DNA of 64,000 nucleotides from Clostridia bacterium (lineage in GTDB: Bacteria > Bacillota > Clostridia > Oscillospirales > CAG-382), in the NCBI GenBank assembly GCA_017516825.1, contig JAFXBC010000025.1, positions 1,328 to 65,327 on the forward strand, written 5' to 3'. The position numbers and the translations under genes are program-made. The notes below the pieces were generated by a model that worked only from the letters and a program-made list of their open reading frames with translations, ran no database searches and had not been told where the DNA came from. This document shows, piece by piece, positions 51,107 to 64,000 of this stretch (positions are counted from its first letter, which is position 1; each line of letters opens with the position of its first letter).

Positions 51107-52183
51107 ATGATGAATCTTGCAGATAAACTAAAAGAACTTCGTAAAGCAAAAAAGATATCCCAAGAAAAGCTTGCCGACTATCTCGGCGTATCCTATCAGG
51201 CGGTGAGCAAATGGGAGAACGGTATTACTTGTCCCGATGTTATGTTGCTACCGGAGATCGCCCGCTATTACGGCATCACCGTGGATGAACTGTTACAGGT
51301 GGAACAGATCGACGCCGACAAATACTTTGAAGAAGTTTGTTCAAATGCCGAAAAACTCTTCCGGGATGGAAAGCGGGCGGAGATCATTCCTCTGTGGCGT
51401 GAAGCGCACAAGAAGCTTCCCAACGATATTCGCGTCAAGGAAATGCTGATGTCAACCTATTTTGATACGGACAGAGTGAAGTATCAAAACGAGATCATCG
51501 AGCTTGGAACGGAAATTTACAATGCCGATCCCTCCGAAGGCGGGAACAGCTATTACCAAGGACAGGCGATCCTCCAGATCGCAAGTACCTACTCTGCTAA
51601 CGGCAATTCGGAAAAGGCAGACGCATGGGCGCGCCGCGCACATCAGATCAATCATTGTCAGGAAATGCTGTTTATGATGATCCACGATGAGGAGGATTGG
51701 CTTACCGAAACCTTCAGCTTTGCCAACCATTGGTACCTGAATACGCTGTTCTATATGGCGGCGCGGCTGAATATGTGTAACGTAAAATGCTTCGGGGAGG
51801 ATTACGTTCAAAAAGTCAGCATGGCCGTAGCAAATATGTTCGAGACGGCGTATCCCAACGACGACATGAGCTATGAATCGTTGGAACAGCTTTGTATTTT
51901 GCACCGCCTTGTTGCCGAGGAGGAAGTATCTCTTGGAAAAGAGGAAGTGGTTATCAGAAAGCATCTTTCCCGTGCAGTGGAATGTGCCGTTAGGTCATCG
52001 ACCGTAAAAGCGCATACGCTCACGCATCCGTTGTTGTACGGTTGGCAGGTCGCAGACGCTCCTTCCGATCACAAGCAGCTTGTGCGAACCTTGAAGGCCG
52101 AATTGGCGTGGAACTGCTTCGACGAGTACCGAAACAAAGATTGGTTTTTGGATCTGGTTGCCCGGCTTGAAAACGTTGAGTGA
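51107..52183 (+). CDS. XRE-HTH regulator with TPR-like C-terminal domain
   Basis: ISQEKLADYLGVSYQAVSKWENGITCPDVMLLPEIARYYGITVDELL. Paralogue of 48238..49011 and 5776..6261. Confidence 0.85.
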   Translation: MMNLADKLKELRKAKKISQEKLADYLGVSYQAVSKWENGITCPDVMLLPEIARYYGITVDELLQVEQIDADKYFEEVCSNAEKLFRDGKRAEIIPLWREAHKKLPNDIRVKEMLMSTYFDTDRVKYQNEIIELGTEIYNADPSEGGNSYYQGQAILQIASTYSANGNSEKADAWARRAHQINHCQEMLFMMIHDEEDWLTETFSFANHWYLNTLFYMAARLNMCNVKCFGEDYVQKVSMAVANMFETAYPNDDMSYESLEQLCILHRLVAEEEVSLGKEEVVIRKHLSRAVECAVRSSTVKAHTLTHPLLYGWQVADAPSDHKQLVRTLKAELAWNCFDEYRNKDWFLDLVARLENVE

Positions 52184-52277
52184 TCAAGCCGGCATACGCC
52201 ACCTCGACGCCGTGACAAAGGCATACACCGACGCCGCGATGAGTAAGGCGTTAGGGTAAAAGCATAATCGCAAAAGC

Positions 52278-52305
52278 AAAGCCCGAAGCACACGCTTCGG
52301 GCTTT
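52278..52305. terminator. Bidirectional terminator at the left edge of the AT-rich island
   Basis: AAAGCCCGAAGC-ACAC-GCTTCGGGCTTT. Confidence 0.8.
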
Positions 52306-52309
52306 ATCC

Positions 52310-53083
52310 TTATTCAAATGAAATATCTGCTACAATAATTGCATGATCACTTCCTGCTGCGACGGCTTCGTCGTAGTTGTATGTTAGTGATTCTACTCTA
52401 CAATTATTTTTCACGAAAAGAAAGTCGTATCGAACAGCACCCTTCCTGCGAATGTTATGTGACTTAGTTAATGGCTTTCCTTCTTCGTATCCTTCGATGC
52501 CATTGAAACGCACATAAGCATCTGTGAGGCCAATGTCAACCATTTCGTCAAAGAAATGCTTTGCACCAGGACCGTTATCAAAGAATTGCATTTGCGTCAT
52601 ATCATAATGATCGACTTGCGGTTCGTTAGCATCTATTCCAATAATATCGGGACGATATTCATCAATAAATTCTGCAAAAGAATCATACTGCACCGATTTC
52701 GAACGATAATATCCGCAACCAGTCAATGAATGCAGCGCTAATATCTTTATAGTTTTATCGTTCTTCTTCAAGGTTACATATACAGTCCTATCAGGAAAAG
52801 GACTGCGTTCAATGACTCCGGCTTCCAGTATTTCGAAATTCTTGCTCACCATTACCAAGACTCCCAACCTTCGAGCGTCTGAGTCAAATTTGCTCGGCTT
52901 ACGATACTCCAGCGAATAAAACAATTCATACTTATTGGAAAGCGTGGCTTTAATGTATTCGTATGCGTGCGGTTTTACTTCCTGCAAAATAACGCAAGTA
53001 TCATCTTCGATTTGAGTCTGCAAGTACTTTATTTTGCGCTCGGTGTCTCCTGCATAACTTATATTCCAGTCAATTATTTTCAA
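52310..53083 (-). CDS. Endonuclease/exonuclease/phosphatase (EEP, DNase I-like fold) family protein
   Basis: AAAGGAG RBS plus TTG start. KIIDWN, VILQEV, IIGIDANE and C-terminal GSDHAII match the EEP motif order. Confidence 0.75.
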   Translation of the reverse strand: MKIIDWNISYAGDTERKIKYLQTQIEDDTCVILQEVKPHAYEYIKATLSNKYELFYSLEYRKPSKFDSDARRLGVLVMVSKNFEILEAGVIERSPFPDRTVYVTLKKNDKTIKILALHSLTGCGYYRSKSVQYDSFAEFIDEYRPDIIGIDANEPQVDHYDMTQMQFFDNGPGAKHFFDEMVDIGLTDAYVRFNGIEGYEEGKPLTKSHNIRRKGAVRYDFLFVKNNCRVESLTYNYDEAVAAGSDHAIIVADISFE

Positions 53084-53832
53084 AGCTTTAACTCCTTTAC
53101 AGCTTGCTTTATTCGTTGATTTCGCTTTTCAACGAAGTCCAGTTCTTTTTCAATCCATGATAAATATTCTTCTACGGTCTTGGGCAATGGATTATACTCA
53201 AATGCGCCACTTCCTAACCAAAAGTTAACGTGGTTATAGTCATCGGTAACGCAATCTTGCAAAAAGAAGAAATCAACATATCCTTTGAAATCTACAAACA
53301 AATCGAAAAAGTTTTTGTTCTGTAAAAGTGTATTGTATAAAGGGCTCTCTTCGTTTTGATAAAATTTTCGGATACACTCTAAGGTTAAATCCCAGCGGTC
53401 TTTAATGAATGGATTACAACCGCGAGATTGATTTATGCCACCTTGCTTTTTTGGAAATATAATTTCACCGCCAATGGTATATGATTTGTGTATATAATTT
53501 TCCATGTAGGCGTGATAGTCAGGCAAAGCGTTTGCCACCTGTTCTATCATTCCGCGATAACGACTATATCTGAAACTGGCAACGATAGAATCGCTTCCAA
53601 AACGAAAGTCTTTCCAAGTCAGATAATTCGCGCCACTACCGATTTGCAAATCCATCGTTTCACCGTTGGGCAAGGGTCTGCTATATAGCAATTTGTGATA
53701 TAACTGCATTGTTTTGCTTGCACTATCAGGATCGCAGTTGAAGCAACCCAATAGTGAGTCTTTATCCCAATAATTATTCCAGTATCTTGGTGTATCGGTA
53801 GTGAAATCGAATTCGACATCAATAGAGTTCAC
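53080..53832 (-). CDS. Conserved-looking hypothetical protein (250 aa), first gene of the pair with the EEP nuclease
   Basis: GTG start with AGAAGG RBS. Its stop codon overlaps the EEP start (TTGA). Motif-rich (YTIGGEIIFP, RGCNPFIKDRWDLTLECIRKFY, FKGYVDFFFLQD) but the domain is not recognised. Confidence 0.65.
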   Translation of the reverse strand: MNSIDVEFDFTTDTPRYWNNYWDKDSLLGCFNCDPDSASKTMQLYHKLLYSRPLPNGETMDLQIGSGANYLTWKDFRFGSDSIVASFRYSRYRGMIEQVANALPDYHAYMENYIHKSYTIGGEIIFPKKQGGINQSRGCNPFIKDRWDLTLECIRKFYQNEESPLYNTLLQNKNFFDLFVDFKGYVDFFFLQDCVTDDYNHVNFWLGSGAFEYNPLPKTVEEYLSWIEKELDFVEKRNQRIKQAVKELKL

Positions 53833-54482: not shown

Positions 54483-55424
54483 ATGAAACAATCTATGGAC
54501 TTGAACAAAGAAACCGCAAGCCGACTCTGGGTAAAGCAGTTCGGCAAGAAACAAAAGGCGGTTGACTTTTCCGGACGTACCATTGCTCGAGCTGCCTACA
54601 ATGACAGAAACAGCGAATACGGCTGGAACGTTGACCACATCCTGCCTGAATCAAGAGGCGGGAAAACCGCAGATCATAATTTGATCTGTTGTCACATTCT
54701 GACCAACGATGAGAAGGCAGACAAATTCCCCTGCTTCAAAGCAAATGGGAAGGAATTTGAAATTCAAAACAGGCAAAACCATTATGAGATCATTGCAAGA
54801 TCTGCCGAAAAGGACGATCCGCAAGAAGAGGCGATAAACTTCTTGGATGCTGCGCAAGGCTTGGAATGCTGGAAGCAATGCCGAGTCGACGGAAAGGATG
54901 TTTTTGTTGGATATGTTAAGATCAAGGTTGAAACAGAAAACGAATCCGACCAACTCCTTGAACGCTATCGCAATTTTCTATCTGAGCTGTTTGATACGGA
55001 TTTGATCTTTGTTGAACAACAGCTATCCGGTTTTTATCCGCTTTTCGGCTATGCGAAACGCACGTTTGTGTATACCGTAATAATTGACAGTATACCAACC
55101 AAAGAAGACACGCAGAATCTCCTTGATAATTGCGTGATCTTGAATACGTATAGCCTTTATTTTACCAACAAAACAGGATTTGATAATATTCAAATCGTTT
55201 GCGGTATGGAGCAATACGATAGCCGTTTTGATGCAACCCTTAAATGCAAAAACAGCATTTTAGAAAAACGGGTTTATTTCAGCGAAGATTTAGCAATTGA
55301 TGAGCTTGTGAAGATCAATACAAGTGCTGAAAAAGAACTCAAGGACACTTATCCGCAAAACGGTTTTTATTGCTATGATCGCGTTTATACACAATTGGAA
55401 AAAGATCTCGAAAAACGAATCTGA
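54483..55424 (+). CDS. HNH endonuclease fused to ~230-aa unknown C-terminal domain
   Basis: HNH core YGWNVDHILPESRGGKTADHNLICCHILTNDEKADKFP (nt 54621-54731). AAAGGAAG RBS. Confidence 0.8.
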   Translation: MKQSMDLNKETASRLWVKQFGKKQKAVDFSGRTIARAAYNDRNSEYGWNVDHILPESRGGKTADHNLICCHILTNDEKADKFPCFKANGKEFEIQNRQNHYEIIARSAEKDDPQEEAINFLDAAQGLECWKQCRVDGKDVFVGYVKIKVETENESDQLLERYRNFLSELFDTDLIFVEQQLSGFYPLFGYAKRTFVYTVIIDSIPTKEDTQNLLDNCVILNTYSLYFTNKTGFDNIQIVCGMEQYDSRFDATLKCKNSILEKRVYFSEDLAIDELVKINTSAEKELKDTYPQNGFYCYDRVYTQLEKDLEKRI

Positions 55425-55495: not shown

Positions 55496-55568
55496 TTCCG
55501 ATTCTCTCTGGACTTTGCGTTTCTTTGTGATATCCTTTGTGCTGACAAAACGGAAAGGAGTCGCAACA

Positions 55569-55835
55569 ATGACAACCGAAGAAAAGATAAAAGGGCTGGA
55601 GCACCTACTCCGCAAATGCCCCGACGTGATCACCGCGCTCCAAGCGTCAAGACTGATCCACGTGAGCAAGAACAGCATCCACGCGGCAATCAACGAAGGC
55701 AAGCTCATCGCATATGCCTACCGAGGCAAGCGGCTGATCAGCAAAGCCGACTTCATCGATTACCTCGCCGCCACCACCGACGACGAAACCGCATGGCAAA
55801 GGCGGCAGCGGGAGAGGATGAGCCATGACGAATAA
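55569..55835 (+). CDS. Excisionase/MerR-type HTH DNA-binding protein
   Basis: ITALQASRLIHVSKNSIHAAINEGKLIAYAYRGKRLISKADFIDYL. GGAAAGGAG RBS. Confidence 0.75.
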   Translation: MTTEEKIKGLEHLLRKCPDVITALQASRLIHVSKNSIHAAINEGKLIAYAYRGKRLISKADFIDYLAATTDDETAWQRRQRERMSHDE

Positions 55836-56373
55836 AACAAAGAAAAGCGAAAAGTTCTCCGCCGAAGAGATCTGCAAGATCTTACATATCAGCAAGCGAA
55901 AATGCGCCTGGATGCTCCAAAACGGAATGATCCCCTGCAAGGACTCCGGCAAGAAAACCCGCCGTTACACCGTCCTGCGAAAAGACCTCGACGCATACAT
56001 AAAAGACAGCACCGAGCACCCCGAGAAGTATTTTATCCCCGTCACCTTTACCTCAAATAACCCCGGTAAACGGGAGCCCGATAAATACTACCTCTACCCG
56101 CATCAGGTCCCCGAAGACTTCCGCCCCTGGCTTGACGATCAGTGGTACGACCTGCCCGACGTAATCACCCCAAAGGACGTGGAAACCATCCTCGGTTACG
56201 AGCACGAGTCTGTCCGCCGTTGGATCAACCGCGGCTGGCTTCAAATCACCAAAGCCCATAACTTTGAAATTGTCCCACGCGAATGGCTCATCGACTTCAC
56301 CTGCGACTATGCCTTCCAAATCATCAAGAAAAGCGAGAAGCATAGAAAACTGCTGTATAAGTATTTCAATTAA
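55825..56373 (+). CDS. Protein with two excisionase-type HTH modules
   Basis: SAEEICKILHISKRKCAWMLQNGMIPC..YTVLRKDLDAYI and ITPKDVETILGYEHESVRRWINRGWL. Overlaps the upstream gene by 11 nt. Confidence 0.7.
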   Translation: MTNKTKKSEKFSAEEICKILHISKRKCAWMLQNGMIPCKDSGKKTRRYTVLRKDLDAYIKDSTEHPEKYFIPVTFTSNNPGKREPDKYYLYPHQVPEDFRPWLDDQWYDLPDVITPKDVETILGYEHESVRRWINRGWLQITKAHNFEIVPREWLIDFTCDYAFQIIKKSEKHRKLLYKYFN

Positions 56374-56530: not shown

Positions 56531-56555
56531 AATATATGACTACAAATGATAGGTG
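56511..56555 (+). promoter_or_regulatory. 10-bp perfect inverted repeat bracketing the -10 box (candidate operator)
   Basis: CACCTATCAT (56511-56520, inside the promoter spacer) and ATGATAGGTG (56546-56555, overlapping the RBS) are separated by 25 nt. Confidence 0.5.
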
Positions 56556-56562
56556 GTATATC

Positions 56563-57408
56563 ATGAAAGAACTGATCAAAGCTATACGCTCTGCGGCGAA
56601 TATGAATCAGGAACAGTTTGCAAGTGCCCTCGGCACGACTCCGCTTTCCATTAACCGCTGGGAAAACGGCAAAACTCTGCCCAACCGTATGGCACAGACT
56701 CAATTATATAATTTTTGCAAGGAGCGTGCAATCGATGTTGTGCAGCTCATTATAGATACCAAAGCATACGAGAATACTGATGATAAGCTTGTCCTCTACC
56801 ACGGCTCAAAGAAAGGCATAAACGGAGACATCGCTCCTATCAGCCGTAACGAATGTGACTTCGGCAAGGGATTTTATATGGGTACAACGACGCTCCAGCC
56901 ATTGACCTTGGTGTGCAACGAGGATAAGCCCAAGCTCTATACCGTCGAGCTTGATATGACCGGATTGAAGGTATTGACCGTTGAGATCGGTATGGATTGG
57001 GCTATGCTGATTGCTTACTACCGCAAGGAGATGGAGAGTGCCAAAGGTACGCCAATTTATGAAAAGTACGCGCACATGGCAGACGGTTATGATGTGATCA
57101 TCGGCTACATCGCCAATGACCGTATGTATACCGAGCTGTCCCGCTTCTTTAACAGAACACTCACCGATGTAGCTCTGATTAACTGTCTCTCCGCACTTGA
57201 CCTCGGCAAGCAGTATGTTGCTGTCAGCGAAAAGGCGTGCATGCAAATCAAAGTAATAAAAGAAGATTCTCTGTCTCAACTTGAGCTTGCGTTGCTCAAG
57301 GATATGAGCGCCGAACGAAGAAAAGAAGGAATCGCTTTGGCTGAGGAAATTGAAGTGAAATACCGTCGAGAAGGCAAATTCTTCGACGAGATATTGAAGG
57401 GTGAATGA
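56563..57408 (+). CDS. XRE-HTH fused to DUF3990-like domain
   Basis: HTH is MNQEQFASALGTTPLSINRWENG. The C-terminal domain has LVLYHGSKKG, CDFGKGFYMG, YDVIIGYIANDRM and LDLGKQYV, the motif order I recall for DUF3990. Confidence 0.8.
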   Translation: MKELIKAIRSAANMNQEQFASALGTTPLSINRWENGKTLPNRMAQTQLYNFCKERAIDVVQLIIDTKAYENTDDKLVLYHGSKKGINGDIAPISRNECDFGKGFYMGTTTLQPLTLVCNEDKPKLYTVELDMTGLKVLTVEIGMDWAMLIAYYRKEMESAKGTPIYEKYAHMADGYDVIIGYIANDRMYTELSRFFNRTLTDVALINCLSALDLGKQYVAVSEKACMQIKVIKEDSLSQLELALLKDMSAERRKEGIALAEEIEVKYRREGKFFDEILKGE

Positions 57409-57409
57409 T

Positions 57410-57832
57410 ATGTGTAAATCATTACAACTCACGCTCTGTGATACACAAGGGCAGCTTTTCGAGCTTGCCGCAGAGCGAGGATATAGCAGCGAAGCCTTTA
57501 TCAAGGCGTTTATGACCTCGCAGGTTGCCGCCGATATGGATAAAGATTTTCACCACGTTCAATGGGCAGGCAAGGCGTACATCCTATCCAGGATGGAGGA
57601 TGAACTTGCAGATCAGCTTACCAAGGATGGTGAGATCTACGATAAGGAAACGCTCTATTGGGCGGGCTACCTTTACCGCTATTGGAACTTCTACACCGGT
57701 GAAAACAGTCGAGAGATTTATAAACAAGCTTCCGCAAAGACAATGAACATCGTCTATCTCATGTACCACACAATGAGCCCCGAAATGGCGATCGATAGGC
57801 TGAAGGAAGCGTACAACGAAACAAAAGAATGA
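57410..57832 (+). CDS. Small helical partner protein (DUF3791-like?)
   Basis: ATG 57410 with GAAGGGTG RBS (the ORF is open from GTG 57401 and overlaps the upstream stop codon). The C-terminal YLMYHTMSPEMAIDRL resembles the recalled DUF3791 pattern only weakly. Confidence 0.6.
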   Translation: MCKSLQLTLCDTQGQLFELAAERGYSSEAFIKAFMTSQVAADMDKDFHHVQWAGKAYILSRMEDELADQLTKDGEIYDKETLYWAGYLYRYWNFYTGENSREIYKQASAKTMNIVYLMYHTMSPEMAIDRLKEAYNETKE

Positions 57833-58648: not shown

Positions 58649-59626
58649 ATGGAAAAGAACAAAATTGACATAAAAGAAAACTATATTTATCGCTTGGATA
58701 ACGAGCTTCTGACCATCTTTCTGCGAGATAGATCGTCAGGCAAGAACATTATTTGGGCAACCGATAACTATAGTTCGCGTGGCTGTGGATATCAAAGTTA
58801 CGATTATATAACCGTCGAAGCCATAACAGGCTATCACGGAAATATCATAAAGCCGAGAACGGAAAAATCCAAAAAGGAGCAGACAGACCGTATACGTGAT
58901 AAAGCGGAGGTGTTCACCCCTTCTTGGATCTGCAACAAACAGAACAATCTCGTAGATAATGCATGGTTCGGTACGGACTTCGTCTTCAACGAGGAAACCG
59001 AAAAGACTTGGATTGCAACCACCGAGCCGATTGCCTTTCCAACCGTAACAGGCAAGACATGGCAAGATTACATTAACGATGTTCGCTTGGAGATTACCTG
59101 CGGCGAAGCTCCGTACCTTGTCAGCCGTTACGATACCGTCAGCGGATATATGATAGAGCTTTCACAACGCATTGGATTGCTTGACAGAAAGCTCCGTGTT
59201 GTAAGCGAGAACACACAGACAGAAAAAGAATGGCTGAAATGGGCAATCAAGTCCTTTCAGAATACCTATGGCTACGATTGGCAGGGCGATAATGTGCTTC
59301 TGGCACGAGAAAATCTGCTCTTCACCTTCATCGATTACTACAAGGCAAAGTTTGATAAAGAACCCGATATCGATATTCTCAAGAAGATTGCCGAAATCCT
59401 CTCTTGGAACATATGGCAGATGGACGGCTTGAAATTCGTAATTCCCGAAAGCTGTAAAGCAGTCGAAGAAGTTCAGTTGTCCCTGTTTGACGACGAGCTT
59501 GAAAAGCAGCCTTGTCCCGGATGTGCCAAGAACGACCCCTACGCTCATACTGGTGTTTACTGCATTATAAAAGACTGGAAAGAGAACAAAAAGATAAAGT
59601 TTGTATCGTTGTTAAAGGAGAAATAA
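58649..59626 (+). CDS. Methyltransferase-fold-like protein lacking the (D/N)PPY motif
   Basis: DKAEVFTPSWICNKQNN (motif X-like) and LEITCGEAPYLVSRYD (motif I-like). No NPPY/DPPY/DPPH anywhere in the protein. Confidence 0.65.
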   Translation: MEKNKIDIKENYIYRLDNELLTIFLRDRSSGKNIIWATDNYSSRGCGYQSYDYITVEAITGYHGNIIKPRTEKSKKEQTDRIRDKAEVFTPSWICNKQNNLVDNAWFGTDFVFNEETEKTWIATTEPIAFPTVTGKTWQDYINDVRLEITCGEAPYLVSRYDTVSGYMIELSQRIGLLDRKLRVVSENTQTEKEWLKWAIKSFQNTYGYDWQGDNVLLARENLLFTFIDYYKAKFDKEPDIDILKKIAEILSWNIWQMDGLKFVIPESCKAVEEVQLSLFDDELEKQPCPGCAKNDPYAHTGVYCIIKDWKENKKIKFVSLLKEK

Positions 59627-59628
59627 TT

Positions 59629-60606
59629 ATGGCAAATAATTTCAATATAGATGATACAATCATTGCAAAAGTGATTTTGGGTAGAATTGAACCGAAGATC
59701 TATGCTTTTGAAACTGAGACTATTCCTAGCTACCTCAAGGTAGGAGATACTTTTCGTTCGGTTGACGAACGTTTGAGCGAATGGAAGAAAGCGGGTTTTA
59801 GTGATTTAAAACACGTTGGAGATTGGTCATCTGAAATAGCGGGAAAAGATATTTATTTTAGAGATTATGCTGTCCATAGTTATCTTGAAGAAAATGGTAA
59901 AACGAGATTAACAAGGGATGTTTATCCGGGCAAACCGTATTCCAAAGAGTTTTTTAAGAATGCGTCTAAAGAAGATGTAGAAAAAGCTATTGCAGATATC
60001 GTTGATTCAAGCGAGAAAGATTATACAAGGTACATATATTATGCAATTGGCAATCGAACTACAGTCGAAACAGAATATAAAAGAGATAGTTTTGACTGGG
60101 AGCCTCGTAGACCTCTTCAAACAGATACTATCGATAGATTTCAACAAGCCCAAGCGAACGGTAGAAATAATTTGCTAATGTATGCGGTGATGCGTTTCGG
60201 TAAATCTTTCACCTCTTTGTGTTGTGCTAAAGCGATGAACGCAAGTTTTGTTTTAGTGGTGTCGGGTAAAGCGGATGTTGCCGATGAGTGGCAGCGAAAT
60301 GTTCAAAAGCCGGGGCAGTTTGAAAGCTTTGTGTTTTTGAATTCTAAAAAATTAAAAAGAAACGATAAAGCTATTACTGATGCACAAGCCGACGGAAAAT
60401 GTATCGTCTTATTCCTCACTTTACAGGATTTATCCAAAGAGAAAAAACGCTTTTCCGAACTGTTTTCGTCCAAAATCGATTTAATGATTATTGACGAAAC
60501 TCATTTTGGTGCAAGAGCTGAAACACTCGGAAAAGTAATTTCTGATGCTCATTACAAAGAAGATGCTGCATTAAAACAGATTGAAAAAAGCAGATGGAAT
60601 CAATAG
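59629..60606 (+). CDS. GIY-YIG/T5orf172-like domain + SF2 helicase motifs I-II (N-terminal part of a split gene)
   Basis: AAAGGAG RBS. KIYAFETE..YLKVGDTFRSVDERLSEW...HSYLE...SKEFF (GIY-YIG superfamily pattern). Walker A MRFGKSFT (nt 60199-60207). DExH IIDETH (60493-60504). Confidence 0.75.
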   Translation: MANNFNIDDTIIAKVILGRIEPKIYAFETETIPSYLKVGDTFRSVDERLSEWKKAGFSDLKHVGDWSSEIAGKDIYFRDYAVHSYLEENGKTRLTRDVYPGKPYSKEFFKNASKEDVEKAIADIVDSSEKDYTRYIYYAIGNRTTVETEYKRDSFDWEPRRPLQTDTIDRFQQAQANGRNNLLMYAVMRFGKSFTSLCCAKAMNASFVLVVSGKADVADEWQRNVQKPGQFESFVFLNSKKLKRNDKAITDAQADGKCIVLFLTLQDLSKEKKRFSELFSSKIDLMIIDETHFGARAETLGKVISDAHYKEDAALKQIEKSRWNQ

Positions 60607-63600
60607 CGAAGCATTGGGCAGCCTGCAACCTGATAGAGCCGAAAAGGAACTCGTAAAAGAAACAAAAGGATTAGATGTAAAAGTAAAACTTCATTTATCA
60701 GGCACGCCTTATCGTATATTGTTAGGTAGTGAGTTTGAAAAAGAAGATGTAATATCTTTTTGCCAATATTCTGACATAATTAGCGAAAAAGAAAAATGGT
60801 ATAAAGAAAATATCGCTGGAGGAAGACAGGAAGAAACCGGTAAAGAAGAATGGGATAACCCTTATTATGGCTTCCCGCAAATGGTTCGATTTGCGTTTAA
60901 TTTGAACGAGTCTTCCATGAGCAAGATAAAGGAATTGGCAGAGCAAGGATATTCATATCATTTGTCTGCGCTTTTTGCTCCTCAGTCGATTGAAAAAGAT
61001 GACGAAGGCAAATATCAAAAGTTTGAATATGAAAACGAAGTATTAGAATTTCTTCAAAGTATCGAGGGAACTAAAAACGACAAAAACGTTTTAGCGTTCC
61101 TTGACAATCAGCGTATTAAAGAAGGAAAACTTTGCCGCCATATGCTAATGGTTATGCCTTATTGTGCCGCTTGTGACGCAATGGAGAAATTGATTAGTGA
61201 CAATAAAGGACTTTTGAAAAATCTGTCGGAATACGAAATAATAAATATTTCCGGTCTTAATTCTCAATATACGAAGATTCAAGAAGTAAAATCCAAGATT
61301 GCCTCCTGCGAATCAGAAGACAAAAAGACGATAACTTTAACCGTGAATCGTATGCTTACAGGTTGCACTGTACCTCAGTGGGATACGATGATTTTCTTGA
61401 AAGATACAGCATCACCGCAGGATTATGACCAAGCACTTTTCAGACTTCAAAGCCAATATGTGGTTGAATACGAAGGCAAAGAAATTGTTGATGGTCAAGA
61501 GGTTAAGAAGGTTATCAAAAAAGATATGAAGCCTCAAACACTCCTGGTGGACTTCAATCCGCAAAGAATGTTTTACCTACAAGAAACCAAATCAAGAATT
61601 AATAATATCAATACGGCTGATGGCGGTAATGACGAAAGCGAGAAACGAATCAAGCGAGACCTTGAAGTTTCACCCATTATTCATATATCAGAGAATAAAT
61701 TGGTCGAAGTCACACCTACCGATATACTGAAAGCAGTTAGTGAATATTCAACCAATCGTGGCATTACCGAAGCCGCAAATGATATTATTGTCGATGAAAA
61801 CCTAATAAATTTCGAGAACGTAAAAAAGGTAATTGATAAGGAATTTGAAATAGGTTCAGGTAAAGGGTTTGCAGAACAAGCTTATTCAGGTGATGAAACC
61901 GATCTGGGCGATGACGATATCCACACTGGCGGAGAGACTGATGAAACTCCCGATGAAGATCATGAAGCAAAACAAGACGATAACACCGGCACTGGAGAAA
62001 CGCAAGAAAAAGAAACCGATATAAAAGTCTTTGTCAAAAAATGCCGTTCATATTATCGTAGAATTCTCTTTTATGCTTTTCTTAGCAAAGGCGAGAAAGA
62101 GATTAAGAACCTAAATGCGGTAATTGAGAGCCTAAGTGATGCTGAGAACGAGAGAATTTTCAACAATCTTGGTATGAATAAAGATTTTGTTGAATTTCTC
62201 AAGAACAATATGTCCGGTGCTGCGTTGCGTTCTTTGGATAACAAAATCTATGATTTATATCGTTTGTCTCATGAATACGAAAATAGCGACGACGATCCCA
62301 TTAAACGCGCAACAACAGCTATCCAGAGGTTTGGTAAAATCAGTGATTCCGAAGTGGTAACTCCGCAAAGAATTGCAAAAGAAATGGTCGATTTGATACC
62401 CGAAGAAGATTTCAAAAAAGTCTTTGAAAATGGCAATAAGTTCTTGGATATTGCCTCTAAAATGGGTGAATTTGCTGTGGCTATTTATAGACGTGCGGAA
62501 TCTTTGGGCATACCTAAGGAATCAATAAAAAACAGTATTTATTCAATTCCTACTTCAAGTATAGCGTACGAATTCACCAGATTTGTATATGAAAAATTAG
62601 ACTTAAACGAAGAAAATTTAGCAAAATATTTTAATACTTATGATTTGCTCTCTTTAGGTGATGGTAAAGTTGAGTATGAATATATTTCTAAATTTATCAA
62701 ACAAAACAAGCCGTTTAATAGAATAAAACAAGATGATGAAATTACAGAAGGAGATGAGATAGTGAATTTTGATGTAGTATTAGGTAATCCTCCGTATCAC
62801 GAAATAATTAGCAACAATACAGCTAATAAATCATTGGGAAAAGAATTGTTCCCTGGATTTATGATGTTATCTAATGTGGTTTCAGGCAGATACACTTCAC
62901 TTATAACCCCCTCAAAATGGTTTACGGGCGACGGACAAGACCATTCTTTTCCGCCTTTAAGAGAGCATTATAAAGAAAACTCTCATTTTAAGAAGTACTA
63001 TCACTTTGGAAACGGAGAGGAGATATTCCCTGATATAACTGTAGGAGCAGTTAGTTATTTCTTGTATGATGAGGAATATACGGGCGATGTAGAGTTTCAC
63101 AATTGTGGACGAACGCCCTCTGTTCGAAATCGTCCATTGTTCGAGGAAGGATTTGATGTAATTCTTTCTATGAATGAAATGGTTGACATCATAAAGAAAA
63201 TAACTGATGCACCGGATTTTGAATCTTTACAAACAATTACCTATGGACGAAATGCTTTTGGCGTTTTAGGAAAAGACATTGAAAAAGATCAATTCTCTTC
63301 AGAGGACTACTTCGAAGGCGCTGTTGAAATCAGATGCAAATATGAAAATTTACGCTATGTTTCACTTGATAAAATAATCAAGAATAAAGAATTGGTTAAT
63401 AAGTGGAAAGTGTTCACATCTAAAGGTAATGGTGCAGCCGGAACATTATCTGATGGAATCCCCGTTTCGATAATTGGAAAAGCATTTGTAGGCAAGCCCG
63501 GAAGTGGATGTTCCGACTCGTTGTTTCCCATAGGATCTTTTGATACGGAAGAAGAAGCCTTGAATCTGCAAAAGTATTTTGCGACCAAATTCCTTCGCTT

Positions 63601-63799
63601 TATGGTTGGAATTATGAAAGTATCGAGAAATATAACTCAGTTGGTTTATAAGTATGTTCCTATGCAGAATTTCACTAATGTTTCTGATATTGATTGGAGC
63701 AAGCCTGTTGCTGAATTGGACAAGCAGTTATATGCAAAATACGGACTATCACAAGAAGAAATCGCATTTATCGAATCTATGATTAAGCCGATGGAGTGA
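60581..63799 (+). CDS. SF2 helicase motifs III-VI + acidic linker + gamma-class N6-adenine DNA methyltransferase + TRD (C-terminal part of a split gene)
   Basis: LSGTPY (60698-60709), VNRMLTGCTVPQWDT and QALFRLQS. Acidic tract at 61886-62020. MTase motif X VVTPQRIAKEMV, motif I FLDIASKMGEF, motif IV VVLGNPPYHE (NPPY at 62786-62797). C-terminal LYAKYGLSQEEIAFIESMIKPM. Confidence 0.75.
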   Translation: MKKADGINSEALGSLQPDRAEKELVKETKGLDVKVKLHLSGTPYRILLGSEFEKEDVISFCQYSDIISEKEKWYKENIAGGRQEETGKEEWDNPYYGFPQMVRFAFNLNESSMSKIKELAEQGYSYHLSALFAPQSIEKDDEGKYQKFEYENEVLEFLQSIEGTKNDKNVLAFLDNQRIKEGKLCRHMLMVMPYCAACDAMEKLISDNKGLLKNLSEYEIINISGLNSQYTKIQEVKSKIASCESEDKKTITLTVNRMLTGCTVPQWDTMIFLKDTASPQDYDQALFRLQSQYVVEYEGKEIVDGQEVKKVIKKDMKPQTLLVDFNPQRMFYLQETKSRINNINTADGGNDESEKRIKRDLEVSPIIHISENKLVEVTPTDILKAVSEYSTNRGITEAANDIIVDENLINFENVKKVIDKEFEIGSGKGFAEQAYSGDETDLGDDDIHTGGETDETPDEDHEAKQDDNTGTGETQEKETDIKVFVKKCRSYYRRILFYAFLSKGEKEIKNLNAVIESLSDAENERIFNNLGMNKDFVEFLKNNMSGAALRSLDNKIYDLYRLSHEYENSDDDPIKRATTAIQRFGKISDSEVVTPQRIAKEMVDLIPEEDFKKVFENGNKFLDIASKMGEFAVAIYRRAESLGIPKESIKNSIYSIPTSSIAYEFTRFVYEKLDLNEENLAKYFNTYDLLSLGDGKVEYEYISKFIKQNKPFNRIKQDDEITEGDEIVNFDVVLGNPPYHEIISNNTANKSLGKELFPGFMMLSNVVSGRYTSLITPSKWFTGDGQDHSFPPLREHYKENSHFKKYYHFGNGEEIFPDITVGAVSYFLYDEEYTGDVEFHNCGRTPSVRNRPLFEEGFDVILSMNEMVDIIKKITDAPDFESLQTITYGRNAFGVLGKDIEKDQFSSEDYFEGAVEIRCKYENLRYVSLDKIIKNKELVNKWKVFTSKGNGAAGTLSDGIPVSIIGKAFVGKPGSGCSDSLFPIGSFDTEEEALNLQKYFATKFLRFMVGIMKVSRNITQLVYKYVPMQNFTNVSDIDWSKPVAELDKQLYAKYGLSQEEIAFIESMIKPME

Positions 63800-63811
63800 G
63801 TATGACAGATT

Positions 63812-64000
63812 ACTTAAAGATATACGAAAAATTCAAAGATGTCAAAGAGGCTAAGGATTACATCGACGATGTAATCCTCCTCCGACATTATTATGCAACA
63901 CAGCAGTATTCTCAAATGCAGGATCATATTCGCAAGCTAATGAATAAGTATCTTGTTGAAACTCTTGTTTGGAATACTGTGAATACATCTCAGCCAACAA
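63812..64000 (+). CDS. Hypothetical protein (3' end beyond window)
   Basis: GGAGTG RBS plus ATG 63812, 12 nt after the upstream stop codon. Open to the window end (MTDYLKIYEKFKDVKEAKDY...). Confidence 0.5.

Follow-up and report, generated by a model that had tools for sequence, protein, structure and literature searches.

The window, a stretch of 64,000 nucleotides (nt) of contig JAFXBC010000025.1 from a Clostridia bacterium, carries near its right end a restriction–modification (R-M) locus of two plus-strand genes, the intact gene X and, directly downstream of it, a large gene that is broken by a frameshift (Table 1). The large gene is a disrupted member of a widespread, catalogued and biochemically uncharacterised two-gene R-M family. 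In the window, it appears as two overlapping open reading frames (ORFs) on the plus strand, 59512..60606 and 60581..63799, the second of which lies in the +1 frame. The real start of the first frame (ORF1) is almost certainly ATG 59629, which is preceded by a GGAG Shine-Dalgarno sequence (AAAGGAG) 8 nt upstream and by the stop codon of X 2 nt before the ATG. The two frames meet at a run of six adenines (A6, 60584-60589), and removal of one A generates a stop-free ORF of 1389 residues. This repaired ORF agrees with the frameshift-bridged product of ∼1390 residues that had been proposed from the letters of the window alone (hereafter the original prediction). Residue numbers below refer to the repaired 1389-residue protein, and positions refer to the window. 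The frameshift falls between helicase motifs II and III. Two candidate TTG start codons of the second frame (ORF2), at 60581 and 60614, have no evident Shine-Dalgarno sequence upstream; gene callers chose the TTG equivalent to 60614 in two near-identical sequences, L093 and L094. The exact ORF1 product has no record as a called protein.

The repaired protein matches the PADLOC profile REase_MTase_IIG (PDLC03626) from residue 11 to residue 1388, covering profile positions 11–1359 of 1359 (1096.9 bits, E=0). The family defined by PDLC03626 and its partner profiles, PDLC03390 and PDLC03375, is the family of the window's genes; its 'Type IIG' label denotes a catalogue class for fused restriction (R) and modification (M) functions. 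The PADLOC R-M profiles, PDLC03626 included, are presumably derived from REBASE. A relative of the large gene is encoded in 517 species-representative genomes (one genome scanned per species), and relatives span Bacillota, Bacteroidota, Pseudomonadota, Campylobacter, Spirochaetota, Saccharibacteria, Lentisphaeria, Actinomycetota and others. Locus counts below refer to the best 80 species-representative loci that carry a large-gene relative. The fused gene is the normal state of the family, because 77 of these 80 loci contain it as a single uninterrupted ORF of at least 1300 residues (L013, L033 and L079 are truncated or broken) and more than 100 intact full-length homologues were found (1350–1405 residues, 47–92% identity, 99–100% query coverage). 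The two ORFs of the window are accordingly parts of one gene, as had been predicted, rather than genes that are always separate in homologous loci.

From the N- to the C-terminus, the large protein consists of a T5orf172/GIY-YIG domain, a superfamily 2 (SF2) helicase, an acidic linker, an Eco57I-type N6-adenine methylase and a target recognition domain (TRD). This order, established from Pfam matches and motifs, is the one given in the original prediction. The profile searches suggested there returned matches to T5orf172, ResIII, Eco57I and, weakly, Helicase_C; the motifs quoted there are all present, and most of them are invariant in an alignment of 36 homologues that extends down to 48% identity.

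The N-terminal domain is assigned to the T5orf172/GIY-YIG superfamily on the basis of a profile match, conserved residues and a predicted fold, and it is a putative nuclease. When residues 1–164 were scanned alone, T5orf172 (PF10544) matched residues 24–124 with 23.8 bits (E=6.5e-5), above the cut-off of 20 bits, accompanied by a weaker MUG113 match. T5orf172 was also matched in 11 of 21 diverse family N-termini scanned singly (best E=3.3e-8), and no other Pfam family recurs among them. Y25 (GIY), K37-V38-G39 (YIG region), R43, R48, E51, H83 and E107 are invariant in the 36 homologues, and Y35 is conserved in at least 90%; no counterpart of the Asn that classical GIY-YIG enzymes conserve was recognised in this domain. 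In the AlphaFold2 model of ORF1, residues 21–135 adopt a β-β-α-β-α-β-α arrangement with a predicted local distance difference test (pLDDT) score of 82–97. A Foldseek search of BFVD, a database of viral predicted structures, with this model placed 13 'Bacteriophage T5 Orf172 DNA-binding domain' proteins among the top 50 matches (probability 1.0; template modelling score up to 0.67 on targets of 99–116 residues), and 'GIY-YIG nuclease' entries were also listed. In the corresponding search of the PDB, SF2 ATPases dominate and the small N-terminal domain is not shown. The prediction of a GIY-YIG/T5orf172-type N-terminus is therefore borne out by the Pfam match above cut-off, the conserved residues and the predicted fold.

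At the top of the viral fold matches of the model of 59629-60603 stand two uncharacterised proteins from Synechococcus phages, 319 and 691 residues long (E=4.8e-12 and 6.2e-10). Both align across the T5orf172 domain and the helicase N-lobe, and T5orf172–helicase fusions are thus also found in cyanophages. In a tblastn search with the N-terminal domain, Prevotella Lak megaphages were matched at E=1e-5.

The helicase-like region contains a ResIII match (PF04851) at residues 161–303 and a weak Helicase_C match at residues 520–605. The SF2 motif set comprises Q164, GKS (191–193), DETH (289–292), SGT (357–359), TG (577–578) and QxxFRLQ (601–607). The GKS, DExH and SGT motifs, Q601 and R605 are invariant in the 36 homologues, as is the methylase motif NPP (1053–1055), which is followed by Y1056, conserved in at least 90%. 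The modelled helicase N-lobe resembles Snf2/ISWI/Chd1/SsoRad54-type ATPases (probability up to 0.98 in a Foldseek search of the PDB). The acidic linker lies within the least conserved segment of the protein body, which is only 27–37% identical in distant homologues. Downstream of the linker, Pfam Eco57I (PF07669) matches residues 968–1133, and no MmeI_Mtase match was obtained. The C-terminal region with methylase motif IV and the TRD, hereafter the NPPY-TRD cassette, is matched by the PADLOC profile PDLC03375 (residues 1042–1388). NCBIfam gave no match for any of the locus genes, and PHROGs gave only generic helicase and methylase matches.

The pairing of X with the large gene is essentially obligate. 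An X homologue lies immediately 5′ of the large gene in 79 of the 80 loci, the exception being cut by a contig end, and the junction is a 2-nt gap or an overlap. X matches the PADLOC profile MTase_II PDLC03390 over its full length (428.6 bits) and is named 'restriction endonuclease subunit M' by NCBI; no Pfam, NCBIfam, PHROG or PDB match was obtained. The invariant blocks of X include AEVFTPsW.CN, which is motif X-like (FTPSW in the window), and RlEi.CGEAPYl, which is motif I-like (LEITCGEAPYL in the window) and which we take to correspond to motif I of M.TaqI-type enzymes. NPPY is absent from X. In an exhaustive HMMER search for the X family, in which the 150 best cluster representatives were classed, 93 are stand-alone proteins of at most 430 residues without NPPY, and 29 exceed 580 residues and contain NPPY ∼180 residues past CGEAPY. 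In the scanned forms of 650–717 residues, PDLC03375 comes immediately after the X module, as is clearest in P0243, P0248, P0251 and P0262. Judged by these sequence features, X looks like the N-terminal, S-adenosylmethionine (AdoMet)-binding half of an Eco57I/TaqI-like gamma-class methylase, and it is placed in the position of a methylase N-half because the fused relatives put the NPPY-TRD module straight after X.

X is 87–93% identical in L038, L047 and L057, whose large proteins are only 42–43% identical to that of the window. Such conservation may stem from exceptionally tight constraint on X, or else from recombination that separates the history of X from that of the adjacent gene.

The NPPY-TRD cassette is exchanged between otherwise different large proteins. 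The window protein is 90–96% identical to its L009 homologue in the first five segments but only 32% identical in the last ∼330 residues; the comparison with L012 is reversed, with 43–55% identity in the body and 92% in the last ∼330 residues. The proteins of the window and L094 agree through ITEGDEIVNFD and part at VVLGNPPYH versus IAVGNPPYQ. The L094 cassette is 92–97% identical to the cassettes of L070, L057 and L079, the bodies of which are ∼42% identical to that of the window. The exchange breakpoint falls where PDLC03375 starts, which is also the boundary at which the modules are permuted in other loci. NPPY-TRD behaves as expected of a specificity module under diversifying selection, and the exchange is unusually clean, with a breakpoint inside the methylase catalytic domain.

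An X::NPPY-TRD protein of 669–717 residues is followed directly by a protein of 1116–1138 residues in three independent loci (L091, L098/L099 and L100). In the second protein of L091, L098 and L100, the T5orf172 signature and the helicase are joined to a methylase N-half at the C-terminus (IFTPKKVVKEMV, FIDLYMKSGLY, FDSL), and NPPY and the TRD are missing. As read from the sequences, every layout uses the same modules (X, T5orf172, helicase, linker, second N-half and NPPY-TRD), and the cassette resides on either X or the helicase protein. Since the nuclease-motor protein of the permuted loci has no sequence-reading module, the two proteins must work as a complex there, and by extension X is expected to bind the large protein in the window layout as well. 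The spare N-half could dock partners, sense AdoMet or form a pseudo-dimeric methylase core. Tentatively, the family may constitute an uncharacterised two-component, motor-driven R-M class in which a nuclease-helicase and X share one mobile NPPY-TRD cassette that can be attached to either. If so, specificity and the identity of 'the methylase' would be re-wired by recombination at NPPY within the catalytic fold, and off-state alleles such as that of the window could permit the acquisition of a new TRD without self-restriction.

L092 (126-4900) shows a different arrangement, in which X is fused in frame to the helicase protein (1125 residues). Similarity to the large protein begins only at residue 77 of the latter, so that part of the T5orf172 region is unaligned, and the methylase-TRD is a separate 455-residue ORF that starts inside the N-half. 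L092 may represent a further permutation or a broken full fusion.

The one-base insertion that disrupts the window gene is polymorphic within its lineage. The nearest intact relatives (L089, L009 and L014) read GAAAAAGCAGATGG at the frameshift, and the window reads GAAAAAAGCAGATGG, a difference of five versus six adenines (A5 versus A6); L001 reads GAAAATGCGGATGG at this position. An exact lookup of the X protein recovered the same island from other metagenome assemblies, L093, L094 and L095. L093 is 99.965% identical to the window, with 4 single-nucleotide polymorphisms (SNPs) and A6. L094 carries 14 SNPs and A6 and is 99.86% identical up to position 62799. In L095 (99.957% identity), A5 leaves the gene open, and the extra A is the sole gap relative to the window. 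The broken allele is found in three of these four near-identical lineage sequences (window, L093 and L094). With A6 in L093 and L094, A5 in L095 and each of them at least 99.86% identical to the window, the frameshift represents genuine polymorphism instead of a mistake in one assembly. The A6 allele occurs with two different TRD cassettes, one in the window and L093 and the other in L094; either a cassette was swapped while the gene was off or the slip took place more than once. Among JGI metagenomes scanned for the junction, the immediate lineage was not found; the only match was a relative of 87.6% identity with A5.

Several known systems resemble parts of the locus. LlaGI and LlaBIII, the characterised Type ISP enzymes, have the same order of nuclease, SF2 ATPase, gamma-class N6-adenine methylase and TRD on one polypeptide, and their C-terminal specificity region is likewise exchanged, the first two-thirds of LlaGI and LlaBIII being >95% identical (PMC3553950). 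Their nuclease is of the Mrr-type PD-(D/E)xK class (PMC2790908), whereas that of the window family is of the T5orf172/GIY-YIG type; LlaGI works as a single polypeptide, whereas the window family has an obligate partner; and the methylase of the window protein matches Pfam Eco57I. Of the proposed Type ISP-like single polypeptide, the domain order was upheld, whereas no sequence homology to PDB chains was detected (see below) and X is present in 79 of the 80 loci. A Type ISP-like mode of working is a reasonable inference by analogy, and membership in Type ISP is not supported. In Type III systems (EcoP15I, Mod2Res), the mod-res order is mirrored by the sister layout of the family, in which an M protein (X::NPPY-TRD) precedes an R protein with a nuclease and an SF2 helicase but no TRD, and ATP-dependent communication between inverted, hemimethylated asymmetric sites would be the expected logic by analogy. 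The Res nuclease is a C-terminal PD-(D/E)xK domain (PMC2790908), in contrast to the N-terminal GIY-YIG type of the window family; moreover, the sister R protein ends in a methylase N-half, and the window layout fuses methylase and TRD to R. The GIY-YIG Type II enzymes Eco29kI, Cfr42I and Hpy188I and phage T5orf172 proteins share the superfamily and the Tyr/Tyr/Arg/Glu pattern with the N-terminal domain, and GIY-YIG is an accepted restriction-nuclease fold (PMC2790908). These proteins differ in being small and stand-alone, with no motor or methylase, and the sequence likeness is limited to the T5orf172 profile.

A split-gene analogue is provided by DnmA(YeeA)-YeeB-YeeC of B. subtilis. The three functional modules are alike, the system is predicted to be R-M-like with single-strand modification (PMC2731913, PMC9973331), and it is found in low-GC defence islands. 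In B. subtilis, the modules are encoded by three separate genes in the order methylase, helicase and T5orf172, and the methylase is MmeI-like; the window family, compared with this system by description only, has fused T5orf172, helicase and methylase plus the half-methylase X.

Taken together, the locus is probably a two-gene ATP-dependent R-M system whose large gene has been switched off by a one-base insertion. A point in favour of the concept is that Vibrio homologues of DnmA and YeeB affect phage sensitivity (PMC9973331). In the proposed mechanism, the TRD and methylase would recognise a short site, probably asymmetric, and modify it by adenine methylation. Where this modification is absent, the motor would be licensed to communicate over long distances at the expense of ATP, as in Type ISP or Type III systems, and the GIY-YIG domain would then nick or cut DNA, probably requiring two enzymes or two sites. 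X would bind the large protein and may serve as a half-domain for docking or AdoMet binding; in the permuted systems, the TRD-less nuclease-helicase protein would obtain its specificity from X::NPPY-TRD. Type ISP and Type III enzymes hemimethylate asymmetric sites, and communication between inverted sites avoids self-cleavage after replication (summary of the MANTIS preprint); by this analogy, a two-site ATP-dependent reaction would be expected. The A6 allele would separate the nuclease and RecA1 lobe (ORF1) from the RecA2 lobe, the methylase and the TRD (ORF2). Such an allele most likely does not restrict, and its capacity to methylate is doubtful because ORF2 lacks an evident ribosome-binding site.

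Several points weigh against a motor-driven restriction system. T5orf172 domains are often annotated as DNA-binding, and the nuclease role is putative here. Translocation, hemimethylation and the two-site requirement are drawn from analogy with Type ISP and Type III enzymes. A phmmer comparison of the repaired protein, together with a 36-sequence family profile, against all PDB chain sequences (E≤1) gave no match to the helicase or methylase in a set that presumably includes LlaGI and LlaBIII, whose structures have been determined (PMC4872093). A profile of the N-terminal domain likewise found no meaningful match among the PDB chains, and no relative of solved structure can be named from sequence. 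The AlphaFold2 model of X is poor (pLDDT 60), its alignment being too shallow in diversity, and its Foldseek matches in the PDB are noise; an hhalign alignment of X with the large protein was confined to 24 residues of motif X (probability 1.4%), with no significant similarity between X and the large protein's own N-half. DnmA-YeeB-YeeC conferred no phage protection and did not restrict transformation in B. subtilis (PMC9973331). Literature searches found no characterised member of the fused T5orf172-helicase-methylase family.

The large protein could instead be a conventional Type IIG or Type III-like enzyme, in which the helicase-like domain is an accessory or an ATP-triggered switch for one-dimensional sliding and cleavage occurs near the site or at a fixed distance from it. 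This reading would fit the 'Type IIG' label of PADLOC and REBASE and the resemblance of the sister M-then-R order to Type III mod-res; ATP-dependent Type II-like enzymes such as CglI also exist (PMC5737866). It is nonetheless unlikely, given that the SF2 motifs are all invariant and that the N-lobe resembles Snf2-type double-stranded DNA translocases in the predicted model; sequence alone does not tell sliding from translocation. The complete invariant SF2 motif set also sets the family apart from the characterised Type IIG enzymes Eco57I and MmeI, which cleave at a fixed distance from the site without ATP and to our knowledge have no helicase domain. It is rather improbable that the locus serves no defence at all, being a relic, or an epigenetic methylase locus like DnmA-YeeB-YeeC, with the frameshift as simple pseudogenisation. 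The broken copies in the window lineage and in L013, L033 and L079 and the B. subtilis analogue without a defence phenotype would be accounted for in this way, but 77 of the 80 loci are intact, the catalytic motifs are invariant across phyla and the active exchange of TRD cassettes implies continuing selection on specificity. In addition, the low-GC island of the window holds other defence-type genes, and neither ORF2 nor X contains a further lesion.

The state of the frameshifted gene itself allows two further explanations. A5/A6 might be a reversible phase-variation switch, or the insertion might be bypassed by +1 ribosomal or transcriptional slippage, so that some cells of the population would have a working gene. 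Phase variation is well documented for Type IIG and Type III R-M genes (reference 45 of PMC9881135), both alleles occur among sequences at least 99.86% identical, with the extra A as the only gap between the window and L095, and the presence of A6 with two TRD cassettes requires recurrent slippage or a cassette swap in the off state. A tract of 5–6 adenines is, however, short for the classical mechanism, the gene contains seven further A6 runs and one T6 run, the zero-frame GAA-AAA-AGC is not a canonical slippery heptamer, and the tract is absent in more distant relatives (GAAAATGCG in L001), which leaves no conserved recoding site; a switch or bypass is thus also improbable. Programmed −1 frameshifting was rejected, as a +1 shift is needed, the register is not that of a canonical slippery heptamer and the tract does not extend to more distant relatives. 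A sequencing or assembly error in a gene that is intact in the organism is highly improbable. Single-base homopolymer errors are common, and no other indel breaks the frame of the gene when close relatives are compared, but A6 recurs in L093 and L094, which come from other samples and assemblers and differ from the window by 4 and 14 SNPs, the fourth assembly has A5, and the other long ORFs of the window are intact. A plain inactivating mutation that is common in the lineage is favoured, because A5/A6 is short, eight other 6-nt homopolymers occur in the gene and the tract is missing from more distant relatives.

The architecture is not new as a catalogue entry, and the idea behind it was previously in print. 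The original prediction held that a GIY-YIG module in place of the PD-(D/E)xK nuclease would define a variant architecture; it is already catalogued as PDLC03626, and helicase-linked R-M relatives with GIY-YIG nucleases were pointed out in 2009 (PMC2731913) and 2012 (PMC3553950). According to Morgan et al. (2009), a helicase (YeeB) and a GIY-YIG protein (YeeC) flank MmeI-like methylases, and the three were predicted to function jointly as an R-M system (PMC2731913). MANTIS (Gao_RL, four genes) and the systems of a programmed-inversion survey were considered and found to be different. Taken alone, the window gives a modest result: its low-GC defence island, from a gut Clostridia-like genome, holds a frameshifted copy of an R-M gene already catalogued as 'Type IIG'. 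The interest lies at the level of the family, in the half-methylase partner, the permutation of the cassette and the exchange breakpoint at NPPY. The family is widespread, yet no report of its characterisation was found, and its combination of GIY-YIG nuclease, motor and methylase was anticipated in 2009–2012. From one characterised member it could be learned whether translocation-coupled restriction can rely on GIY-YIG nucleases and what role the spare AdoMet-binding half-domain plays.

Table 1. Features of the R-M locus, followed by those of the surrounding island (window positions)
Feature	Position	Strand	Remarks
Gene X, 325 aa, intact	58649..59626	+	Methylase-N-half-like; directly upstream of the large gene
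ORF1, disrupted R-M gene	59629..60606	+	T5orf172 domain and helicase N-lobe through motif II; premature TAG after the frameshift
ORF2, disrupted R-M gene	60581..63799	+	Helicase C-lobe, acidic linker, complete methylase, TRD
A6 homopolymer with +1 A insertion	60584..60589	+	Intact relatives: A5 or GAAAATG
T5orf172/GIY-YIG-superfamily domain, putative nuclease	59680..60018	+	Residues ∼18–130; Pfam, conserved residues, predicted fold
SF2 helicase-like ATPase	60106..61699	+	Residues ∼160–690; ResIII, invariant motifs, Snf2-like N-lobe
Acidic low-complexity linker	61889..62008	+	Residues 754–793; most acidic 40-aa stretch, 42% D+E
Methylase N-half	62345..62770	+	Residues 906–1047; motif X VVTPQRIAKEM, motif I FLDIASKMGEF, putative motifs II and III
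NPPY-TRD cassette	62771..63799	+	Residues 1048–1389; NPPY 62786-62797 (motif IV); stop codon 63797-63799
Lineage-specific downstream gene, start	63802..64000	+	∼114 aa in relatives (114 aa in L001 and L093); 10/80 loci
EEP-family-like protein (257 aa, weak Pfam match) and DUF6994 protein (250 aa, E=1.2e-76), overlapping	52310-53832	-	Island edge
Protein of 313 aa, N-terminal HNH_4 nuclease motif, uncharacterised C-terminal region	54483-55424	+	No PADLOC match
Two HTH_17 excisionase-like genes	55515-56373		
HTH_3 + DUF3990 protein (290 aa) and overlapping 143-aa gene	56536-57832	+	PADLOC PDC-M13B/PDC-M42A and PDC-M42B

The R-M locus lies in a horizontally acquired island, the left edge of which is marked by a drop in GC content from ∼55% to 35–45% at ∼52 kb (∼52000-52300). 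Ordinary chromosomal genes, encoding an alpha-amylase, a Big_2/ricin surface protein and peptidases, are located to the left of the island, and the window contains no tRNA and no integrase. Among the island genes, only X is conserved with the R-M gene. The accessory genes envisaged in the original prediction hold for X, which is universal, and fail for the other two candidates: the ∼114-residue downstream gene and a 262-residue membrane/coiled-coil gene upstream of X were rejected as core components, being present in 10 and 0 of the 80 loci, respectively. A small HTH_26 controller-like gene, in keeping with R-M-style regulation, precedes X in about one-quarter of the loci and is not found in the window.

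The HTH_3-DUF3990 gene and its PDC-M42B neighbour are conserved as a pair in L093–L095, and the pair looks like a separate two-gene candidate defence or toxin-antitoxin-like module. Just past the position of the window's right end, L093 (11539-12978) contains the 114-residue gene and then a protein of at least 996 residues with N6_Mtase, MmeI_Mtase and Eco57I matches, which suggests that a second, MmeI/BREX-PglX-like methylase gene adjoins the R-M system in L093. L094 has different genes at that position, including one for a DUF6414 protein. Outside the R-M gene, the SNPs between the window and L093 or L094 are clustered in the HTH_17 genes, with three within 10 nt (55754-55763) and seven within 53 nt (55854-55906), and these clusters suggest small recombination patches rather than scattered point mutation.

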